Positions 35,986 to 62,478 of a stretch of DNA of 64,000 bases are shown here, one piece after another. The DNA is from a virus (taxonomy: Duplodnaviria; Heunggongvirae; Uroviricota; Caudoviricetes), in the IMG/VR virus record IMGVR_UViG_2654587674_000003; one strand, written 5' to 3'. The notes below the pieces were generated by a model that did no database searches, had not been told where the DNA came from, and worked only from the letters and a program-made list of their open reading frames with translations. The stretch's first letter is position 1. Each line of letters begins with the position of its first letter. The position numbers and the translations under genes are program-made.

Positions 35986-36639
35986 TCAAAGTATCACGGT
36001 ATCTTCATCAACTTCTTTCCCAGTCAGCGACTTTGGCTGGGAGGTGCCTGCTTTAACTTTTTCATGCCCAATAATGGACAGGAACGAAGCGAGTATGCCT
36101 GTTTTTTGCTCTTTCTCGACTGTACCGGTCATCTGCTCTACGTAATCCGCACTGGCAACATTGTGGTATACGGTCGCGTAGCAACACAGGATCATCAAAA
36201 TATGTTCCGGCCTGATATCCTGCCAGTTCACCCGGTAAACTTCTTCTCCGTTACCGTTGTATTCGGTGTCAACGATGGAGTCGGGAATTTCGAAAGCACC
36301 TTTATTGTTTTGCGGCAGGGATAATAGCTTCTGGAGTTTTAGCTCTCTGTATCTTTCCATCCCTACGATGATCGCAGCTCTGCCGTCGGCATGACGTGTC
36401 TTGAGTGTTACCTGGCTTGCTCCGGTGCCAGCGGAGATCGTTGGCGTAATTTCGTCTACCAGCACCTTAAATTTGCTTTTCCGCAGGGCTGCTATAGCTG
36501 GAGGAATCTTTTGCTTTTGTTCCAATGCTGACGCGGGAAGGGGTTTTACTTCGTTAATCACGAGAGCACCGTCTTTCAGTATTGCAGTGAGCATTTGCGG
36601 TTTGCTGGTGGTCAGGCTGAATATTGCTATCTTCTCCAT
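35986..36639 (-). CDS. Hypothetical protein (217 aa)
   Basis: ATG at 36637-36639 with strong RBS GGAGGAAGG; the track GTG at 36681 lies inside a hairpin and is rejected. Confidence 0.5.
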   Translation of the reverse strand: MEKIAIFSLTTSKPQMLTAILKDGALVINEVKPLPASALEQKQKIPPAIAALRKSKFKVLVDEITPTISAGTGASQVTLKTRHADGRAAIIVGMERYRELKLQKLLSLPQNNKGAFEIPDSIVDTEYNGNGEEVYRVNWQDIRPEHILMILCCYATVYHNVASADYVEQMTGTVEKEQKTGILASFLSIIGHEKVKAGTSQPKSLTGKEVDEDTVIL

Positions 36640-36666
36640 TGTCCTTCCTCCACGGATGACGGATAC

Positions 36667-36690
36667 AAAAAAAGGCCGCACATGGCGGCC
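36667..36690 (-). terminator. Terminator-like hairpin (GGCCGC-n5-GCGGCC plus T7 on minus strand) 30-50 nt upstream of the 36639 start
   Basis: Stem and U-tract read on the minus strand; purpose unclear (attenuator or end of an upstream small transcript). Confidence 0.4.
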
Positions 36691-40269: not shown

Positions 40270-40280
40270 TGTTAGAAAAC
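40270..40280. promoter_or_regulatory. Operator-like motif TGTTAGAAAAC (site 3)
   Basis: Family core overlapping the stop of the Ref-like gene. Confidence 0.45.
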
Positions 40281-40858
40281 TAATTTATCAATTCAATCGC
40301 CATCTGATACAACGCCATTTCATCGGCATTGTGCCGTATGAAATCTGCTTTTCCGCCTATTTTTCCATCAGCATGAACAGGGACCAGCCAGGGATATTGT
40401 TCTCGGACCTCGGCTGGCGCTGCGTACTGGTGGTGCCATTTACACAAAGGGAGGACATATTTATGCGCGTTCTCTGCCGTTCTCCCGAAGATATGGTGCA
40501 GGGATACTACTGGGCTATGTTGCCCGTGAATATGGCAGGCAATGCAGGGGAGAGTACCGATAGCGGTCTGTATCCGGCGTTCATCGGCTGTGAGTGATCT
40601 GCCCTTCAGGCCGCGTGACGTGCGTGTTTTTTTGGGCGGAGCGGATACAGCTTTATCTTTTCTCCGCTGTTCATATTGCTTTGCTTTTTCAATTTTCTTT
40701 TGCCGATATTCAGGCGATGCGGCTTTTTCTCTCGCTCGCTGCTGCTGGCGTTGAGCTTGTTGAAGGCGCTTTGCCCTTTGTTCCTCTCGCCAGGCCGGGT
40801 CAGCCAATTTTTGCATGGCTTTTTGTCTCTGTTTCTCCCAATAACTCTGTTTCTGCAT
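40280..40858 (-). CDS. Ref-like HNH-type endonuclease: disordered basic N-terminus + Cys/His-rich C-terminal core
   Basis: 192 aa; K/R/Q-rich first 90 residues; CIACHIHGQH...HHIFGR...CKWHH; operator-like sites upstream. Confidence 0.5.
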   Translation of the reverse strand: MQKQSYWEKQRQKAMQKLADPAWREEQRAKRLQQAQRQQQRAREKAASPEYRQKKIEKAKQYEQRRKDKAVSAPPKKTRTSRGLKGRSLTADERRIQTAIGTLPCIACHIHGQHSPVVSLHHIFGRTAENAHKYVLPLCKWHHQYAAPAEVREQYPWLVPVHADGKIGGKADFIRHNADEMALYQMAIELIN

Positions 40859-47243: not shown

Positions 47244-47933
47244 ATGAAAGAACGCGGGATGATTTTTAACGATGAGATGGTCAGGGCCATCCTCGAAGGA
47301 AGGAAGACGCAGACTCGCCGACCTGTAAAAAATGTCAGGGCCGATAACTGCCTGGTTATCCGTAAACCGACAAAGAAACGCAATGGTATCTATACCCACG
47401 TTATGGATGCACCTGAACATGGTTTATGCCCGTTCGGTAACGTTGGTGATCGCATATGGGTCCGTGAGGCGTGGGCGATATTAGGCAATGAGGATGGTTG
47501 CAGTGTGGACTGGAACGACAACCTTTGTCGTGGCGATGAGAAGAACGCAGCAAGGATTTATCGGGCCAGTTGTGAGCAAAAGCCGGGTGATTACGGCTTG
47601 TGGTCGATACCCGATGATGCCGACTGGAAACCTCACACTGTGAATGAAAAATTTGATGGCGGGTGGTGTCCATCAATTCACATGCCGCGCTGGGCATCGC
47701 GCATTCTTCTGGAAATTACCAACGTGCGCGTTGAGCGGTTGAACGATATCAGCGAATGCGATGCAAGGGCTGAGGGCGCACCAACAGAATCGACCCTCAT
47801 TGGCGATAAGCATTACCCAAGTTTCCGTAGCCTATGGAAATCAATTTATGGCGAAGATAGTTGGAACGCTAATCCTTGGGTGTGGGTAATCGAGTTTAAG
47901 CGTATTCAGGGGGCAACCAGTGAGCAAAATTAA
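47244..47933 (+). CDS. ASCH/PUA-like domain phage protein
   Basis: ATG 47244 with GAGGTGG RBS; N-terminal MIFNDEMVRAILEGRKTQTRRP pattern. Confidence 0.45.
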   Translation: MKERGMIFNDEMVRAILEGRKTQTRRPVKNVRADNCLVIRKPTKKRNGIYTHVMDAPEHGLCPFGNVGDRIWVREAWAILGNEDGCSVDWNDNLCRGDEKNAARIYRASCEQKPGDYGLWSIPDDADWKPHTVNEKFDGGWCPSIHMPRWASRILLEITNVRVERLNDISECDARAEGAPTESTLIGDKHYPSFRSLWKSIYGEDSWNANPWVWVIEFKRIQGATSEQN

Positions 47934-48102
47934 CTATCAAGAACTGCGCGAGGCGGCGGAACAGGCAACGCAAGATGAATGGGTAGCATATATTTTGCCG
48001 GTCATAACGGCATTTATCCTGCGCGCACGTCTGAGGGTAGGCATTGCGGATACTTTATTGACTGGCCTGGCGTCTGTCAGGGGCGGGAGAGCATCAGCAT
48101 GA
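47920..48102 (+). CDS. Short ORF (60 aa) whose N-terminus parallels that of the 48509 gene; possible remnant
   Basis: MSKINYQELREAAE versus MSKIDYQKLREIAE; translationally coupled both sides. Confidence 0.3.
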   Translation: MSKINYQELREAAEQATQDEWVAYILPVITAFILRARLRVGIADTLLTGLASVRGGRASA

Positions 48103-48512
48103 GCATCAGAACCTACGCAGTGAATTGCAATGACGCATGGCTAAACACCGAAGGTGATGACATCTCCGGCTCATACGTTAAGTACAAAGACCATCAGGAA
48201 GTGGTTGCCGCTCTTGAGGCCAGGTGCGCGGCGCTGGCAGCGGAGAATGCGGCGCTTAAACAGTCGGAGAAGGAATTTAATAACTTCTGTCGTCAGGAGT
48301 ACTACGGTTGGGAGGACAACTTCACGGAAACCCCAGCTACCGACGCTCTCCTGGCTGAAGTACGTGCGCAGGGGGTGGATATGGCTCGTAACGCGATGAT
48401 TGATTTTGTTGATGGTGAAGTTGGGCCAAACAAGAACGTTCCGGGGCTGATTAGAGGCGCAGAGATATGCGTAAGTATTGCTGAACAGCTTCGCGAAGGA
48501 GGCAACCAGTGA
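48099..48512 (+). CDS. Mosaic paralog family member 4
   Basis: ATG 48099 with GGGAGAG; AALAAENAALK; C-terminal ATDALLAEVRAQG...AEQLREGGNQ. Confidence 0.5.
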   Translation: MSIRTYAVNCNDAWLNTEGDDISGSYVKYKDHQEVVAALEARCAALAAENAALKQSEKEFNNFCRQEYYGWEDNFTETPATDALLAEVRAQGVDMARNAMIDFVDGEVGPNKNVPGLIRGAEICVSIAEQLREGGNQ

Positions 48513-48955
48513 GCAAGATTGATTATCAAAAGCTTCGTGAAATCGCTGAAAAAACAAAAATTGCTGGTGAAGCACCTGTAATGCCTTTCGATCAGCGAAT
48601 TAATGCGCTTAACGATTTTATGAAGCACTTTTCGCCAGATATCGCGCTGGCATTGTTGGATGAACGGGAAAGAAACCAGCAATACATCAAACGCCGCGAC
48701 CAGGAGAACGAGGATATTGCGCTAACGGTAGGGAAGTTGCGCGTTGAGCTTGAGGCAGAAAAACAGCGGGCAAAGGATCTGTTTATGGAAAATACTCGGC
48801 TTAAGTCAGGTATAGCCGGTCTGATACACCTCGGTATTCGATATGCAGATGTTGATGTCATGAAAATTGCTGGAGATGCCCAGCTTTCTACCCCATGCAC
48901 TGACAGCATCATAAACAGCATTGCAACAGGCATTCGCATCAACGGAGGTGAGTAG
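48509..48955 (+). CDS. Coiled-coil protein sharing helical segments with the paralog family (148 aa)
   Basis: GTG start overlapping upstream stop; LTVGKLRVELEAEKQRAKD. Confidence 0.45.
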   Translation: MSKIDYQKLREIAEKTKIAGEAPVMPFDQRINALNDFMKHFSPDIALALLDERERNQQYIKRRDQENEDIALTVGKLRVELEAEKQRAKDLFMENTRLKSGIAGLIHLGIRYADVDVMKIAGDAQLSTPCTDSIINSIATGIRINGGE

Positions 48956-49127
48956 TGCGTGTGGCATGTATTGGCTTGTTACCGTACCCGACTCGTTTTT
49001 GGGCTTCTGCGCTAATTGCAAAGCCGTATGTCCTGATGGCTGACAACATCATCCCGGCACCAAAGCGCCGCCATACCGGTATTGCAGCGGCACGACGAGC
49101 AGCAAAGAGACGCAGGAGAGCAAAGCG

Positions 49128-53390: not shown

Positions 53391-53416
53391 GAAGCCCGCT
53401 CAACCAGGCGGGCTTC
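53391..53416. terminator. Hairpin between convergent doc and the minus-strand operon
   Basis: GAAGCCCGC-n8-GCGGGCTTC; T-rich on the minus-strand side. Confidence 0.6.
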
Positions 53417-53422
53417 CTACTA

Positions 53423-54517
53423 TCACTCAATGATTTTTTCTGCTGTCAGCCAGCTAATTTCTTGCCTGTCTTTCGGCGGTTTTAGCATGTGGGCGTATTC
53501 AGCGACATTCTCCCACGAAATTGTTTTTGCCCACTCAACGATAGCATTGTGATCTGCAGTGAAGAGTGGAATGGTGTGCGATTTCAACCATTCTAATGTC
53601 GTGACGCCATGTTTTTTGGCGTGGTGCTGCGCATGATGCCGGGCTATCACTCGTAATGGTATTGTCCATTCACTACCATCAGGCATCGAAAAGCGCATTG
53701 TCTTCGGCATATCTGATTCAAGAACAGCCTCCCTAATACCAGGGAACTCACCAAGAATCATACGACGATAGTCATCACTATTTCGCCCGCCATACCTTTC
53801 GGCAAAATGATCAAGATATTCTTGGGTAATAAATGGTGAATCCTCCGCACTCAGCTTAATGGCTTTATATACACCACTCGGATTATCTTCAGCTAAAGCA
53901 CGTCCATGATGTGAATCATAAAAAAAGCCTATTTCCTCTGGTGACGGAATTGAAGTGAGCAATATGCGTGAATCACCACTAGTCATGCTTGCCCACACAA
54001 TGCTGTATGCCTGATCGCTGATATGTGCGGAATCCACAATAATGAATAAAAGATGGTCGGCGTAGTGACCTGCAATGCTATCTTCATAGTTAAGGCGGAA
54101 GTTACAAAAGCACATTCCCCAAAATTCATTGAACATCAGACCGCTATCACCGACCTTAAAATACTCAATGATAAAAGGTTGTTTTTTCAGCAATGCCTCC
54201 CAACATTGCCACACATATGCAACAATTCCTCTTTTGCAAACATTTGATTTTGGATAAACAATTACTGTCCGGGAATCAGGATACATAATCGTATAAAGGG
54301 TACTAATAACAGCAAGCACTTGCGGTCGTCCGATCCCATACGGAGTGGTGACAGTAGCTTTTGCATTATTGGGCTGTATAGCTTCAACAATTTGTTGTTG
54401 CTGGTGGCTTAAATCAATATCAAACAATTCTTTTGCTGCCAGTACCCAATTGTCTTTATATTTCTCCACCAGCGACAGCCAGCGCGGATCTTTATAAATA
54501 TTGCTCTTAGTCGCCAT
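53423..54517 (-). CDS. Terminase-large-subunit ATPase-domain paralog with degenerate Walker A/B; no nuclease domain
   Basis: Colinear similarity to the pacB product (HQQQQI, FYDSHH, YGGR, GxFP) but SGHGTGKS is replaced by TPYGIGRP and LILDEASG by FIIVDSAH; ATG 54515-54517 with AAGGAAG RBS. Confidence 0.55.
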   Translation of the reverse strand: MATKSNIYKDPRWLSLVEKYKDNWVLAAKELFDIDLSHQQQQIVEAIQPNNAKATVTTPYGIGRPQVLAVISTLYTIMYPDSRTVIVYPKSNVCKRGIVAYVWQCWEALLKKQPFIIEYFKVGDSGLMFNEFWGMCFCNFRLNYEDSIAGHYADHLLFIIVDSAHISDQAYSIVWASMTSGDSRILLTSIPSPEEIGFFYDSHHGRALAEDNPSGVYKAIKLSAEDSPFITQEYLDHFAERYGGRNSDDYRRMILGEFPGIREAVLESDMPKTMRFSMPDGSEWTIPLRVIARHHAQHHAKKHGVTTLEWLKSHTIPLFTADHNAIVEWAKTISWENVAEYAHMLKPPKDRQEISWLTAEKIIE

Positions 54518-55274
54518 CTGCCACTTCCTTAACTTCTTCTTTGGCCTGTTCTGCAATCGCCGCACGGCATTTCGCCCTGGCTGTAGCGATTGCTTCAGCT
54601 CGCACATCGTCTGGAATCGTTGACGTGATATACATATCCAGTTCTTCGGCACGGAATACTGTTTGGTCCAGATATTCGCGTAGCATCCAGGTAAATTCGA
54701 AATCACACGCGATAATCTCTGCGCTACCTTCTGCACCATTTGGGAAATGAATAAATGCCTGTTTAGCCAAACCGATAACACGACATGCGGTTGCCAAAAC
54801 AGCGACAACCAGGTTTACATTTTCACACGCTACGGGCTGGTTAACGCCGGAGATTACTCCATTTAACTGTCGGTTATATGGAAGGTAGTTTGAGATGCGT
54901 TCTACGCGCCATGTGCCAGTCAGGCTGCCATTTTTAAATATAATTGGTGTAACGGATAGCCCAAGCTCGCGTATAAGTCGTTGCGCTATAGCAGGATCAT
55001 TAAACAGGTCTAATGCTACACATTCGAAAGACTGCGCAAGGGCAAACAGTTCTTCCAGAGAGTAGTCTTTGCCCCTGGCGGTGATGTAACGACGAACGCC
55101 GCTGTCTGCATCACTCCATATAGCTACGCCATGCTCTTCATTCAGCTCTTCATTAAAGCCGAGATACGTCATGATAGTGCGTTCAATCGTGTCAAACGGC
55201 AGTGACATGTCGGCGTTAACAGCCACCAGCAGGCCATTACGCAAGCGGTATTGAATTGTTTTAGTGCTTTCCAT
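54507..55274 (-). CDS. Hypothetical protein (255 aa)
   Basis: ORF in tightly packed operon. Confidence 0.5.
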   Translation of the reverse strand: MESTKTIQYRLRNGLLVAVNADMSLPFDTIERTIMTYLGFNEELNEEHGVAIWSDADSGVRRYITARGKDYSLEELFALAQSFECVALDLFNDPAIAQRLIRELGLSVTPIIFKNGSLTGTWRVERISNYLPYNRQLNGVISGVNQPVACENVNLVVAVLATACRVIGLAKQAFIHFPNGAEGSAEIIACDFEFTWMLREYLDQTVFRAEELDMYITSTIPDDVRAEAIATARAKCRAAIAEQAKEEVKEVADGD

Positions 55275-55280
55275 GTCAAA

Positions 55281-55721
55281 TCACTCCACAACAAACCAGT
55301 CACAGGCCAGCAGGTCGCCAACTGAAGGCACCCACGGAACAACTACACCTTGTGCATTTTTTAAGGCGAAATAAGCACCATACGGAACGAGGTCGCCGGG
55401 GAAATATCCCTTAATGGCTTCCATTCGTGCCGGGTACTGTCCTTCAGGAACCAGCCAGCAGAATTGGTTTTCGCCGTTCCACCCGCGTCGAGCAACTTTC
55501 TTGCCTTCCTTCAGCCACATCAGCGCGTCTGAAAAGTCGGCTGCTTCAAGGTCGATTTCTTCTTGCTGGGTGGTGATGCCACCAGCAGAAATAGTTACGC
55601 TCCCGGTAAGATTAATCATCACGCCGTTGTCATCCGTAATGATGACCGTGGTTCCATTTTTTTTGTGAGCTTTGTATTTGGGACGGAACTTAAAAAGCTC
55701 TTTCGTTGCCATGTTATTCAT
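55281..55721 (-). CDS. Hypothetical protein (146 aa)
   Basis: ORF in operon. Confidence 0.5.
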   Translation of the reverse strand: MNNMATKELFKFRPKYKAHKKNGTTVIITDDNGVMINLTGSVTISAGGITTQQEEIDLEAADFSDALMWLKEGKKVARRGWNGENQFCWLVPEGQYPARMEAIKGYFPGDLVPYGAYFALKNAQGVVVPWVPSVGDLLACDWFVVE

Positions 55722-55735
55722 AGTCTTTTCTCTGC

Positions 55736-56230
55736 TTATAACTTTTCGTACTGAAGCGGTGAACGCTTAATTTCAAAGTGGCCTTCCGATGTGCTACCAA
55801 AGCCACCAGCACCACGCTCCGTTTCGTTGAGTTCCTCAACCTCGACTAGTGAGACTTGTTCAACACGCTCAAAAATTCCTTGCATGACAGCCATTCCAGG
55901 CTTGAGACAAACGCCTTCCCCGCCTGGATCAGTAATCAGTTTTGCCATGATTTCGCCGCGATAATCGGAGTCGATAATTCCTACGCAGTTAGCCAGGCGA
56001 GTATGTTTTTTGCAGCCCAATCCTGATCGCGGATAGAGTTTCAGACACCAGCCGGGCGGGATCTCCATAGCCAGTCCGGTATACACCCACCAGCTTGAGG
56101 AAATTGCACCATTGCTATCGACGCATGGTTTTATTTCAACAGCCTCAAAATCCATCGCCGCCGATCCGGAGGTGGCATAAGCTGGAAGTTTTGCTGCCGG
56201 ATGTAGGCGTTTCACTTTTACGTAAATCAT
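55736..56230 (-). CDS. dut: dUTP diphosphatase (dUTPase)
   Basis: Motif III GIIDSDYRGE and C-terminal RGxGGFGSTS. Confidence 0.7.
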   Translation of the reverse strand: MIYVKVKRLHPAAKLPAYATSGSAAMDFEAVEIKPCVDSNGAISSSWWVYTGLAMEIPPGWCLKLYPRSGLGCKKHTRLANCVGIIDSDYRGEIMAKLITDPGGEGVCLKPGMAVMQGIFERVEQVSLVEVEELNETERGAGGFGSTSEGHFEIKRSPLQYEKL

Positions 56231-57117: not shown

Positions 57118-58146
57118 TTACGAATCCATCAGGCGGCTATTAGCCCCCACAGACACGCCGCCACGGCGAAGATACCGCATAAGTGTTTCCGGTTTCTTCC
57201 AGGTTCCTTCCTGCATGATCTCCACCATAGACACCTGCTTTTCAGCCATATCAATAGCGGCCCCGACGCGTGCACTATGCCCAGTCCACGTCCGGTATCT
57301 TCCTTTGTTTGGCGTAGCATCTCTTTTATTCAGCAACACCCAGGCGTCGCTGAATATTTTCTCCATTGCAGGTGCAGTAAGGGGCGTTGTCGTAATCCTG
57401 GCCTTATTGCTACGGTGTATCGGCGGGAACAGCACCGCGTCAGGATGTTCACGAAGCCCGGAAACATCCAGCCAGTCATTCAGCACAGCAGTAGTGCGAC
57501 GGGAAAGCACCTTATCAAGCCCGGCGGCGGTCGTTATTGTCTTCGTGTGTGAAATATGTAGCGTGACAGTGTCACCTGTTTGGTCCAGATCTCCTACACG
57601 AATACGCGAGATTTCCGACATACGCATCAGCGTATTGTATGCAACAAAGAGAAAAGCCCGGTTGCGCTGGTCCACCAGCCGTTCTGACCTGGACAGCAGG
57701 ACGTCGAGCAGTTTCAGGTCGTCCCACCGCAACGGTATAGCCTGGCCTGTTCGCTCGCCTTTTTCCGTTGCCGCTTCACGCCGGATGCGCCGCATGGCCA
57801 GAGACACACTTTTATCGTCCGACAGCGGCGGGAGGCCACATTGCGAAAGCAGCATGTTAAGCATGGCATAGTGCTTATCAATGGTGGTCGAAGCCAGATC
57901 AGCATCATGCAGCTGAAGAAAATACTCGCGGGCCATCTCTGGTGAGATCGGGAACCAGGCGAGCTGGCGAGCGTGACACCATCTCGCCCAGGAGTGAAAC
58001 ACTAACCGGAGATCGCGCAAAGTATTCGGCGCGTAAGCCCCCTGGTCATTCATGAACCGCATAAAGTTTTCTGCGGCCTCCTGGTACTCTTTGCCAATGT
58101 TGCGCAGAAAACCACCGGAGCTGCCAGAGATAATTAATTTACTCAT
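57118..58146 (-). CDS. dre: Cre-like tyrosine site-specific recombinase (Dre-type)
   Basis: 342 aa colinear with P1 Cre as recalled (WFP...NMLLSQCGLPPLSDDKSVSLAMRRIR, C-terminal WTGHSARVGAAIDMA); adjacent rox-like site. Confidence 0.9.
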   Translation of the reverse strand: MSKLIISGSSGGFLRNIGKEYQEAAENFMRFMNDQGAYAPNTLRDLRLVFHSWARWCHARQLAWFPISPEMAREYFLQLHDADLASTTIDKHYAMLNMLLSQCGLPPLSDDKSVSLAMRRIRREAATEKGERTGQAIPLRWDDLKLLDVLLSRSERLVDQRNRAFLFVAYNTLMRMSEISRIRVGDLDQTGDTVTLHISHTKTITTAAGLDKVLSRRTTAVLNDWLDVSGLREHPDAVLFPPIHRSNKARITTTPLTAPAMEKIFSDAWVLLNKRDATPNKGRYRTWTGHSARVGAAIDMAEKQVSMVEIMQEGTWKKPETLMRYLRRGGVSVGANSRLMDS

Positions 58147-58298
58147 GAAACTATTTAACCTCTATATACAGATGACGCTACGCGAAAAATATAAAAATGA
58201 CAGGGTAGCTATAAGTTAATTTTCAAGATTCAAGCCTTTGATCCGAGGCACGTATTTTCAGTGATGTCAACACTGATCATCTACCCATGATTATAGCC

Positions 58299-58330
58299 TA
58301 ACTTTAAATAATGCCAATTATTTAAAGTTA
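58299..58330. other. rox-like recombination target site (14-bp inverted arms, 4-bp spacer)
   Basis: TAACTTTAAATAAT-GCCA-ATTATTTAAAGTTA, 150 bp upstream of the recombinase gene; matches my recollection of rox. Confidence 0.8.
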
Positions 58331-59605: not shown

Positions 59606-61114
59606 TTATATATCCAGATCCGGCATTTCGATATCCGCCAGAACCTGATCTCGGAAAGTTGCCATTTCGGCACCAATATCTTCATTAGCAGGCACATAGT
59701 CCACCAGCATAGTGAAGCAGTAGGTATCCCATCGGTCAGGCGATTTGATGTTTAGCTTTTGCCGCATGTGCTCTTTGCGCATCATCGCCATTTTCCCTTC
59801 TTCATTCAGTAAAAAGGGGATTTTTGACGCTTGCTCTGCCGTTTTAGGGTCACTGTCTATCCGCATACGCCCTGACTTTATGGCATCACGCGCCATAATG
59901 TTTGCGTAGGCACGCTGATTAACAAATCGCTCCCTGTCTTTGTTCGCAAACATGGGTTTTCCCCACCGAATACGTACCGGGTTCGCACCACGACGCACCA
60001 ACTGCGCACACGTATCAGAACCAAAACCATCAGCATCAACCGCGATTGTTATATTCGGGTATTTTTCCGGCGTACATTCGTTATATATGAAGTCAGCAAA
60101 GGCCAATGGGTCCATAGTGCCAGGCATCTCCATTACCTTAAAGTTAACAACGCGCCGCTTATCCCTGTGACCTGATACCTTGCAGATGTTGAGGACCGAC
60201 TTATCTCGCCCATTACCAACGTCAGCCGTTGCCACCCATCCCCAGTTTTTCTCCAACAACACCTTGCGGCGAGCAGAGCGATCGCATTCATCACGACCAA
60301 GCAAATAGCCGTTAATTTCTCGTGGGAACTGACCAAGCACCTTGACCATGTACTCAATAGAATCGCGCCCACCATATTCCAGAAGCTTCTCCTTGATGAA
60401 TTGTGGTGTGACGAACGGTGATTCTTCCGAGTTAAGAACAATTGCTGTCCAGATCCCTTTCGGGTTGTCTGGGGTTTTTGCTCGAGAATGGTGCGAATCG
60501 TAGAAATAACCACTTGGCCTTGTTGGCTGGGATAGCATCAACATCCGGTTATCTTCTTCAGTAAGAGCACCGGTCATTACGCCGATCGCCTTATCAGATA
60601 TACCAGATGCTTCATCCAGAATTAGAAGCAAATGTGCCGCGTGTTCCCCCGCCAGCGCTTCTTCGTTGCCGAGTCGATAACCTTTGCAGAGAACTTCCCA
60701 AATCCCCTTACGGGAGCGCTCATAAAACATGGTGTCAGAGAGGACAAAATAGGTCTGCAACCACCCATGACGCTTAACTGCATTCGCCCAATACTGTTTA
60801 ACGTATTTGAATACGCCTGTTTTTACCTGGCCTATCTTGTTAGCAACAATGATGACACGGGCATCGGGGAACAGGATCATAAAAATCAACAGCAACATCG
60901 CGGTAAGGGACGACTTCCCCGTTCCGTGTCCGGACGTGACGGTCGTCCTACTCCCCGTTTCCTGCACTGACTGAATGATCTGCTGCTGCTGGTGGGAGGG
61001 GAACATCCCAAAAATATCGACTACAGCCTGGGTAAAGTTGTAGCGGTATTTGATTACCATATCGCGCCAGCGTGGATCGCTGGTGACGCATTTAATCTTG
61101 CGCCCGCCAGCCAT
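59606..61114 (-). CDS. pacB: Terminase large subunit PacB-like
   Basis: 502 aa; Walker A TSGHGTGKSS, Walker B LLLILDEASG; coupled to pacA. Confidence 0.8.
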   Translation of the reverse strand: MAGGRKIKCVTSDPRWRDMVIKYRYNFTQAVVDIFGMFPSHQQQQIIQSVQETGSRTTVTSGHGTGKSSLTAMLLLIFMILFPDARVIIVANKIGQVKTGVFKYVKQYWANAVKRHGWLQTYFVLSDTMFYERSRKGIWEVLCKGYRLGNEEALAGEHAAHLLLILDEASGISDKAIGVMTGALTEEDNRMLMLSQPTRPSGYFYDSHHSRAKTPDNPKGIWTAIVLNSEESPFVTPQFIKEKLLEYGGRDSIEYMVKVLGQFPREINGYLLGRDECDRSARRKVLLEKNWGWVATADVGNGRDKSVLNICKVSGHRDKRRVVNFKVMEMPGTMDPLAFADFIYNECTPEKYPNITIAVDADGFGSDTCAQLVRRGANPVRIRWGKPMFANKDRERFVNQRAYANIMARDAIKSGRMRIDSDPKTAEQASKIPFLLNEEGKMAMMRKEHMRQKLNIKSPDRWDTYCFTMLVDYVPANEDIGAEMATFRDQVLADIEMPDLDI

Positions 61115-62478
61115 TAATCATCCTCCGGCGGTTCTATCGCGATATCATCATCTCCGGCGTCATACCCTGCATCAGATGCATCATAATCACCGTAAATTTC
61201 AGCCGTTGCCGAAGGGTCAATATCCAGCTCTTCGTCGTTGGCCTCGAATTCTCCAGCTTTACGCTCGCCATTGCGGTCGTAATCTCCGCACCCCAATTCT
61301 TCAACAATGGTTGCCACATCCGCCCGGCGCTCTGCCAGCCATTGCGGATGGTTAGCCTGAAGCGTTGCAAACTCCCTTGCCTCTTTGTCCAGCTGTTCAT
61401 CATCAACATCATTGACGTCAGAAACAGGTGGTTCGAGAAGAGTGATAGCTTTCGCCGCGCGCGCCGCGAGGATAGCCGGGACGCTGACACCCTGGCGCTC
61501 GATGTATTCAGCAACACCGATATCATCCAGTTCCTCGCGCTCACGCATACGTATAGCGGCGGCGATAACTCTGGCTGCGCGTGCGTCAGCGCCAATGCGA
61601 TATTCAATCTCTTTGCCACGCTGTTCGGCCTGTAGGCGTGCTAATTCGAGTTTTTCTCTGGCCTCAGCCTCTTTGAATGCTTGCTGGCGAGCGCTCTGAC
61701 GAAGCTTTTCATCCCCCTGTCGCAGCTTTTGTTCGGACTGATATATAGCTGCCAACCTACTGATAAAATCATTCATGTAGTAGGCCGCGTCACTGATTAG
61801 ACCGAGAAGGCGCTGCCCAGGGTGCATTCCTTCTGGCTCTTTATCGCCCAAGGCGTCTATTTCCGCCTGTAGACGTTCGGCCTCCTGATCAACAATGCTT
61901 TGATACTGAAGTGCGCGCTCTTGCGCCATTTGAATTGCTAACCGCAGGTGTTCTTCTGCGCCGTTCTTCATCATATCGCGAGCCACATTCGTAGTTGGCA
62001 ATGTGGCACGCTGCACAGCACCGTCAGGGATCATTGCAGAAGATCCCTCAATTTTTGGGGCGTTTTTATCTTCTTCGGGGATCATTTTCGCCATTTTTTC
62101 GCGCAATGATCTCCTGACAGATTCTTTTATCTCATTGTTATTATTTGAATTATTTTCATGATCCGAAGTTTTCTTTCTCGGCATACTTCGGAAAGAACCT
62201 GCGCCCTGCGAATTGTCAATTTCTGTAAATTTTGTTTTTTCTGCACCCTCTTCCAGCTTTTTTGTTGCTCTTCCCGCCCGTTTTTTTTCAGGTGATTTGG
62301 TGCTTTTTTTTGTTGTCTTTACCTGCGACCGCACCTCATTTTTTTTCATATTGAGATGCTTTCTGGCTGTATTGAAGCTAAGGCCATGCTCCTCACAGTA
62401 TTCCTTTACAGTGATCCCTTTTTCTTCACGCAACGCTATAAAGCGGGCGCGGTGCTCCTCCCAATTAACCAGACTCAT
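61114..62478 (-). CDS. pacA: Terminase small / pac-recognition subunit PacA-like
   Basis: N-terminal HTH (ITVKEYCEEHGLSFNTARKHL), coiled-coil middle, acidic C-terminus. Confidence 0.7.
   Translation of the reverse strand: MSLVNWEEHRARFIALREEKGITVKEYCEEHGLSFNTARKHLNMKKNEVRSQVKTTKKSTKSPEKKRAGRATKKLEEGAEKTKFTEIDNSQGAGSFRSMPRKKTSDHENNSNNNNEIKESVRRSLREKMAKMIPEEDKNAPKIEGSSAMIPDGAVQRATLPTTNVARDMMKNGAEEHLRLAIQMAQERALQYQSIVDQEAERLQAEIDALGDKEPEGMHPGQRLLGLISDAAYYMNDFISRLAAIYQSEQKLRQGDEKLRQSARQQAFKEAEAREKLELARLQAEQRGKEIEYRIGADARAARVIAAAIRMREREELDDIGVAEYIERQGVSVPAILAARAAKAITLLEPPVSDVNDVDDEQLDKEAREFATLQANHPQWLAERRADVATIVEELGCGDYDRNGERKAGEFEANDEELDIDPSATAEIYGDYDASDAGYDAGDDDIAIEPPEDD
61887..62163. other. 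GATC-rich segment inside pacA; candidate pac cleavage site
   Basis: Six GATC in about 277 bp (61887, 62029, 62042, 62080, 62108, 62160), five of them in 135 bp. Confidence 0.35.

Follow-up and report, generated by a model that had tools for sequence, protein, structure and literature searches.

What can a terminase large subunit (TerL) still do once it has lost both its nuclease domain and the active site of its ATPase? This question is raised by a gene at positions 53,423 to 54,517 of IMG/VR virus record IMGVR_UViG_2654587674_000003, of which a stretch of 64,000 nucleotides (hereafter the window) was analysed. The pacA-pacB-c1-recombinase block of the window is 98-99% identical to that of phage D6, which identifies the window, by sequence, as a D6-like plasmid prophage of Escherichia coli and its recombinase as Dre, whose target is the rox site. 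Close relatives of this element are common 87-96-kb non-mobilizable plasmids of E. coli and Salmonella. The window has an intact pacB; the gene described here, hereafter the paralog, is a second, PacB-derived copy. We show that its product is a pseudoenzyme, an old duplicate of the PacB ATPase domain in which the P-loop Lys and Ser, the Walker B Asp, the C-motif Gln and the nuclease have been lost, and that it is a real gene under purifying selection, accessory rather than part of the packaging enzyme. A description of a dead PacB paralog was not found in the searchable literature.

A PacB ATPase domain without its active site

The paralog is read on the minus strand from an ATG at 54517 to a stop codon at 53423-53425 and encodes 364 aa. 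The mechanical open reading frame (ORF) reaches upstream to a TTG at 54808; PGAP sets the start at the ATG in near-identical plasmids and calls the same ORF there, and the ORF, strand and coordinates given initially are correct. By BLASTP, residues 7-259 align colinearly with the PacB of the window (37% identity, E=7e-57), and with the PacBs of P1, D6 and the window a homologous N-terminal TerL-type ASCE ATPase domain is shared over about 255 colinear residues at 33-37% identity. The alignment of 230 residues that had first been proposed is thus significant and colinear, but the domain is longer, about 260 aa. The full length also matches the PHROG 5902 profile (E=3.2e-164, profile positions 2-358 of 359), as does PacB; PHROG 5902 is a sequence family without assigned function, and membership gives none. 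AlphaFold returned a TerL-type ASCE ATPase fold with a predicted local distance difference test score (pLDDT) of 85.3.

Twelve paralogs were compared column by column with 16 true PacBs. The Walker A residues G62, K67 and S68 are invariant in the PacBs and variable in the paralogs, where the position of the P-loop Lys is taken by R, E, Q, H, M, C, T, I or D. In the window allele the changes are Gly to Pro, Lys to Arg and Ser to Pro, and in place of the pattern GxxxxGK[ST] it reads PYGIGRPQ, with Pro for both the first P-loop Gly and the Ser. Walker B, LLLILDEAS in PacB, reads LLFIIVDSA (Asp to Val, Glu to Asp), such that hhhhDE with its catalytic Glu has become FIIVDS; among the paralogs the position of PacB D167 holds V, I, T, A, M, P, L or S and that of E168 holds D, N, E, H, Q or K. 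The P-loop lysine motif is therefore lost, as annotated initially, whereas the loss of the Walker B acidic pair is partial: the Asp is gone, but an acidic residue, Asp, is retained at the catalytic-Glu position of the window allele. The P-loop Gly, Lys and Ser, the Walker B Asp and Glu, and the C-motif Gln with its adjacent Arg are all invariant in PacBs, and changed and mutually different among paralogs, which supports a catalytically dead protein and not simply a second terminase with a non-canonical site. The QQ (Q-motif glutamines), S-x-P, G-[FY]-FY-x-SHH (in short GxFYxSHH) and YGG motifs are kept in paralogs and PacBs alike. Since the catalytic columns vary while the fold and lid motifs stay, selection maintains the fold but not the active site. 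Paralogs and PacBs are most alike in the lid segment, at 45-46% versus 31% for the Rossmann core.

The paralog further differs from PacB in lacking the RNase-H-like nuclease domain: the protein stops 102 aa past the ATPase domain, and these residues do not align with the PacB nuclease domain (PacB aa 265-502). An unrelated tail does replace the nuclease, as had been claimed, though it measures about 102 aa (aa 263-364) and not 130. The ATPase-like domain is acidic (isoelectric point (pI) 5.65, net charge -6), unlike that of PacB, which is basic (pI 9.2, +6); a basic ATPase domain is expected of a DNA motor. Neither the paralog nor IsaA, the product of the gene directly upstream, had a usable match in Pfam, NCBIfam or PADLOC (for PADLOC no family at E<=0.1), and PDB sequence-profile searches with the whole paralog family, IsaA and the tail found nothing significant.

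A full-length paralog is present in 163 of the 790 PLSDB plasmids with a PacB-like gene, 34 of these at at least 95% identity, ten at 60-80% and about 119 at around 51%. The window allele occurs in 36 of 5426 complete E. coli genomes and is always plasmid-borne. More than 160 plasmids, representing three allele types and two genomic contexts, have kept the ORF intact. Pairwise ratios of nonsynonymous to synonymous substitution rates (dN/dS) range from 0.12 to 0.33 in the ATPase-like domain and from 0.08 to 0.19 in the tail. Where PacB is core, the paralog is accessory, fast evolving and located away from pacA, without an adjacent small or recognition subunit; in the window it closes the dre operon, some 5 kb distant from pacA-pacB.

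Databases name the gene 'hypothetical' or, wrongly, 'terminase large subunit', and the present analysis corrects the latter records. The wrong label is carried by GenBank MH422554 (MH422554.1, 6995-8089), MH445380 and one metagenome-assembled entry in nr, which look like misannotations; in P0002, moreover, the start is set upstream and overlaps isaA.

Constant tail, variable ATPase-like domain

Residues 263-364 match the C-terminus of phrog_17928 (E=1e-13) and, by profile search, a family of more than 100 clusters (E 1e-16 to 1e-24) that has no Pfam model. It comprises a large set of standalone proteins of about 100 aa and the C-terminal domain of DUF1351 proteins of 440-510 aa. The paralog tail is 33-41% identical to the latter (phrog_17928, e.g. 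gp35 of Xanthomonas phage SAC) and to the standalone proteins (e.g. gene_35 of the P1-like Cronobacter phage JK004, which forms a gene of its own, with a DnaB-like helicase encoded two genes upstream). It has the near-invariant residues D-G-S-x-W-x-x-P, A, T-x-P-x-F, W-A, W-x-D and W, with D-G-x-x-W-x-x-P, A, P-x-F and W-A shared as family-invariant positions. Median pI of the family is 4.3 and net charge -12; the window tail is less acidic and His-rich. One member, P0120, is fused to a phosphopantetheine-binding (acyl carrier protein-like) domain.

Tail-family genes are located in phage early regions, beside Erf or RecT, YqaJ or DUF3799 exonucleases, DUF2303 and the single-stranded DNA-binding protein SSB. 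DUF1351 occupies the same position as Mu Gam beside genes of single-strand annealing proteins (SSAPs) (PMC8093625). In these SSAP/exonuclease/SSB modules the domain stands alone or follows DUF1351 and a long charged coiled coil, whereas in the paralog it follows a dead TerL ATPase domain; in the window it sits in the dre operon with phd/doc downstream, and in P1-like plasmids the cassette follows ssb. As far as sequence similarity shows, the tail is a domain of about 100 aa taken from phage recombination modules. The analysis thereby defines an uncharacterised acidic domain family that is common in such modules.

The ATPase-like domain is exchanged on this background with domain precision. Plasmid pCUVET20-PYO4.3 is 99.1% identical to the window in PacA, 99.4% in PacB, 99.7% in C1, 98.8% in Dre, 96.5% in IsaA, 97.1% in the tail and 97.6% in Doc; the ATPase-like domain is only 50% identical. 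Nucleotide identity collapses from about 54534 to 53732, that is exactly from the 3' end of isaA to the domain junction. Co-variation of the N-terminal domain with PacA/PacB or with IsaA was rejected (about 50% versus 96-99% identity), and since the domain is some 50% diverged on a constant backbone its specificity is not determined by the PacA, PacB or IsaA encoded on the same element. In NZ_CP115379.1 the ATPase-like domain and the acidic 3' end of isaA are about 50% diverged at the amino acid level, versus 96-99.7% identity for the rest from pacA to doc.

Further degenerate paralogs were found by an exhaustive HMMER search. P0135, P0137, P0138, P0140 and P0165 consist of the ATPase domain only (252-268 aa), and P0139 (444 aa) has a different C-terminal domain. 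In a neighbour-joining tree all paralogs except the outlier P0165 form one clade with long branches, apart from the PacBs. The tail-less P0137 (263 aa) is encoded on the Citrobacter freundii P1-like plasmid NZ_CP114569.1 (locus L019, 6336-7792), where its gene, close in front of mat, overlaps a gene for a Ref-family HNH nuclease at the stop codon of the latter. In the window, ref (40280-40858) and mat (35986-36681) are found elsewhere, away from the paralog. On metagenomic contigs, P0138 directly follows a radical-SAM gene (L033, 4027-5795) and P0139 lies among small early genes, namely DUF551, Ead/Ea22 and theta (L034, 6001-7335). A context search for P0138 and P0135 in IMG/VR gave no loci, and a scan of genome contigs gave mostly true PacBs and just two paralog loci.

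The TerL ATPase fold has thus been reused as a pseudoenzyme with a new domain fusion, to which the closest analogue is T4 vs.8. Like the paralog, vs.8 is a standalone, nuclease-less copy of the TerL ATPase domain that is encoded apart from the packaging genes. Unlike the paralog, it has both Walker A (GGRQSGKS) and Walker B (IIDE) in place, carries no additional domain at its C-terminus and belongs to the T4 gp17 lineage. It was rejected as a homolog for want of any sequence similarity, and with its Walker motifs retained and its sequence unrelated it must have had an independent origin and represents a different solution.

Operon context and the slot behind isaA

The paralog had been annotated as the last gene of a tightly coupled operon that starts at the recombinase, and this holds: gene spacings after dre are 73, -4, -4, 14, 6 and -11 nt, a strong promoter-like site precedes dre and a terminator-like hairpin lies past the paralog stop (Table 1). 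The hairpin is single and GC-rich and, lying between the convergent paralog and doc, could terminate both.

Table 1. Coordinates of the paralog, its domains and motifs, and the associated features of the window
Feature	Position	Strand	Basis or remark
PacB-derived pseudo-ATPase paralog gene	53423..54517	minus	364 aa + stop; ORF/translation, BLASTP, PHROG 5902, AlphaFold, dN/dS
TerL/PacB-type ATPase-fold domain, catalytically degenerate; also hypervariable allelic cassette	53732..54517	minus	aa 1-262
Degenerate Walker A, TVTTPYGIGRPQ (PacB: TVTSGHGTGKSS)	54320..54355	minus	alignments and column analysis
Degenerate Walker B, DHLLFIIVDSA (PacB: AHLLLILDEAS)	54026..54058	minus	column analysis
C-terminal domain of about 102 aa, uncharacterised family (standalone acidic proteins of about 100 aa; C-termini of DUF1351 proteins)	53426..53731	minus	aa 263-364
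Shine-Dalgarno-like AAGGAAG	54524..54530	minus	6 nt before paralog ATG 54517; sequence reading
Intrinsic-terminator-like hairpin between paralog stop and convergent doc stop	53394..53409	minus	scan and sequence
IsaA ortholog	54507..55274	minus	255 aa; phrog_2326; 3' end overlaps paralog start by 11 nt
Tad2-like (DUF2829) gene, dre operon	55281..55721	minus	Pfam PF11195, E=6e-23
dUTPase gene, dre operon	55736..56230	minus	Pfam PF00692
Dre tyrosine recombinase (Cre analogue of D6), first operon gene	57118..58146	minus	98.4% nt identity to D6 dre region; Pfam Phage_integrase
Sigma-70-like promoter upstream of dre	58290..58317	minus	11/12 matches; consensus match only
PacB, real terminase large subunit, Walker A, Walker B and nuclease domain intact	59606..61114	minus	
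PacA, pac-site recognition subunit	61114..62478	minus	PHROG 1711; D6 pacA

The gene in front of the paralog encodes a protein 48% identical to P1 IsaA (E=1e-88), and its D6 counterpart, orf113, is annotated as 'similar to P1 isaA'. An isaA gene always lies directly upstream of the paralog, and both the start overlap with isaA and the ribosome-binding site (RBS) of the paralog are conserved. The paralog, as the final dre operon gene, is co-transcribed and probably also co-translated with IsaA. IsaA has an invariant Cys, NQPV, CRVxGLGK and HFPxGxEG motifs and a variable, very acidic C-terminal tail. A relationship to DUF1351 was rejected with an hhalign probability of 0.1%, and one to Ref by BLASTP. 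In P1, isaA is non-essential for lytic growth.

Among D6-like phage-plasmids, 93% have been reported to carry Tad2. The ORF of the Tad2-like gene counts 146 aa in the window and in D6 (orf114, 'C-terminal half of J46_0048') versus 212-233 aa in related plasmids; the N-terminal part is missing or variable.

D6 itself has the order dre, orf117, orf116, dut, orf114 and isaA-like gene, followed by pdcA and doc, without a paralog. A subset of P1-like plasmids carries, between ssb and hxr, isaA and a paralog of 51% identity. When P1 c1-100 is compared with these plasmids, homology ends precisely with the isaA stop codon and sets in again at hxr, and the same slot (isaA-IS1-isaB, region 2 of P1-like phage-plasmids; PMC9603915) holds IS1 and isaB instead. 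IsaB was considered as a remnant of the paralog and rejected, as it shows no similarity and the break is exactly at the isaA stop. Whether P1 has an equivalent, a question raised by the initial annotation, can thus be answered in the negative, since the gap consists of IS1 and an unrelated isaB. In relatives from Klebsiella, Enterobacter and Raoultella, an isaA-like gene is last in the operon and is followed by other cargo (hicAB, an ars operon). This varied cargo makes the post-isaA slot a cargo hotspot, in agreement with the published 'variable region 2' of P1-like phage-plasmids (PMC9603915).

Elsewhere in the window, at 47900-49000, neighbouring ORFs with similar N-termini (MSKINYQELREAAEQ..., MSKIDYQKLREIAEK...) are tandem ead/Ea22-like paralogs of a variable early region.

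What a dead terminase domain may bind

From its sequence we infer that the paralog almost certainly works through binding, and not as an ATPase or DNA translocase. With an acidic ATPase-like domain and a tail family of median pI 4.3, it is therefore expected to be a protein binder or mimic, and the binding of DNA or nucleic-acid ends that was first suggested is disfavoured; a decoy, the other original suggestion, is viable as a protein decoy and not as one for nucleic-acid ends.

TerLs are the most conserved tailed-phage proteins and a main target of bacterial pattern-recognition immunity. We tentatively favour, while holding it to be far from settled, that the paralog would take part in genetic conflict as a protein mimic or adaptor with the shape of a terminase. 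It would be directed either at host sensors that recognise the ATPase fold of TerL (Avs1-3, Upx) or at the proteins with which rival phages package their DNA; the hypervariable ATPase-like domain would serve as specificity module and the conserved acidic tail as a constant adaptor or effector module. Small non-enzymatic proteins of phage satellites, Ppi of Staphylococcus aureus pathogenicity islands (SaPIs) and Rpp of phage-inducible chromosomal islands (PICIs), bind the terminase small subunit of another element and redirect or block packaging; they offer a possible functional analogy but are unrelated in sequence and fold.

We lean to the conflict reading because only the TerL-fold domain diversifies on an otherwise constant backbone, because the gene occupies a cargo hotspot and shares its operon with a Tad2-like anti-Thoeris gene, and because sister dead paralogs have varied partners or tails (Ref nuclease, radical SAM, another C-terminal domain). 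It is also favoured by the sensing of the terminase ATPase domain alone, by EcAvs2 via terminase-bound ATP (PMC13601566) and likewise by Upx, and by the precedent of vs.8, whose function is unknown, which activates EcAvs2 and for which a possible anti-defence role was suggested (PMC13601566). A TerL-fold protein that is expressed early or from the prophage would, once unable to bind ATP, no longer be recognised as terminase by ATP-dependent sensors, to which it would be invisible or non-activating. A broader form of the idea is doubtful but worth stating: P1/D6-type phage-plasmids would carry a family of 'dead terminase' mimics, with the TerL-fold domain as decoy or inhibitor of Avs1-3, Upx or rival packaging proteins, loss of ATP binding as an adaptation that avoids the trigger, and the tail, Ref and radical SAM as exchangeable effector or adaptor modules.

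Several points weigh against a role in conflict. The binding partner is a prediction only. PADLOC, Pfam and NCBIfam give no anti-defence family for the paralog, and only the neighbouring gene is Tad2-like. Without ATP it may not bind Avs2/Avs3, in which case 'decoy' may be wrong and 'stealth' a mere side effect. Synonymous divergence (dS) between alleles is saturated, and the N-domain divergence could stem from import by recombination and not from an arms race. Tail-less variants of 263-266 aa in E. coli plasmids, P0003 and P0007, stop at the domain junction; these could be frameshifts or natural ATPase-domain-only forms. Finally, the SSAP/exonuclease/SSB contexts of the tail, the adjacency to ssb and the Ref-coupled relative would fit a role in recombination at least as naturally.

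Such a role is possible although on balance unlikely. The dead ATPase fold would be a scaffold in an accessory factor of recombination or replication, acting through the tail and IsaA on SSB, SSAP, RecA or host nuclease complexes, for example in cyclisation or establishment of incoming DNA or in Gam-like inhibition of a host nuclease. It would account for the company of the tail family (RecT/Erf, YqaJ or DUF3799 exonucleases, SSB, and DUF1351 as fusion or neighbour, itself in the Gam-like slot beside SSAP genes; PMC8093625) and for the JK004 tail gene near a helicase gene. It would likewise suit the position of the paralog within the Dre operon, the cassette behind ssb in a C1-controlled operon of P1-like plasmids and the sister paralog overlapping the Ref nuclease gene. 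However, both domains of the paralog are acidic, which makes direct DNA binding unlikely, a housekeeping factor of recombination would not be expected to have one hypervariable domain while the backbone stays constant, IsaA is related to neither DUF1351 nor Ref and is dispensable in P1, and other dead paralogs have no tail.

The initial annotation had proposed regulation of packaging. As a dead subunit the paralog would associate with PacA or enter PacB assemblies and so delay or limit cleavage at pac, e.g. in order to shield the plasmid prophage from leaky pacase. Homology to PacB covers the N-terminal helices and the lid, the lid being the best-conserved part with its motifs retained on both sides, and the operon is non-late, all of which a regulator of this kind would explain. 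We nevertheless consider it improbable for the cognate enzyme: the N-domain allele is uncoupled from PacA/PacB (50% versus 99% identity), one paralog family serves both P1-type and D6-type elements, the gene is accessory to about one-fifth of P1/D6-type plasmids, D6, P1 and about 80% of related plasmids package normally without it, and its clade is old and separate from all PacBs.

Two last explanations are hardly tenable: a second, non-canonical but active terminase or ATPase, to which the TerL fold, the Q-motif glutamines, the window allele's Arg for the P-loop Lys and Asp at the catalytic-Glu position, and the label of some database records could point, is very improbable as the replacing residues differ from one ortholog to another (hydrophobic or polar ones where PacB has the Walker B Asp), Pro stands for the first P-loop Gly and for Ser, nuclease domain and adjacent small subunit are absent and an intact pacAB lies 5 kb away; and a decaying, functionless duplicate, suggested by the lost motifs, the truncated variants and the many relatives without a paralog, is largely refuted by dN/dS well below 1 in both domains, by an ORF kept intact across plasmids, contexts and allele types, by a confidently predicted fold and by the conserved RBS and isaA overlap.

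Catalytically dead yet selected and widespread, the paralog offers a clean natural experiment on the uses of the terminase ATPase fold beyond packaging, in which a recognition-sized domain is swapped as a cassette between otherwise identical plasmids. If the paralog is indeed a mimic, it would be a first phage-encoded counter-measure or competition weapon built from terminase itself, and would give a function to nuclease-less TerL paralogs, T4 vs.8 among them.

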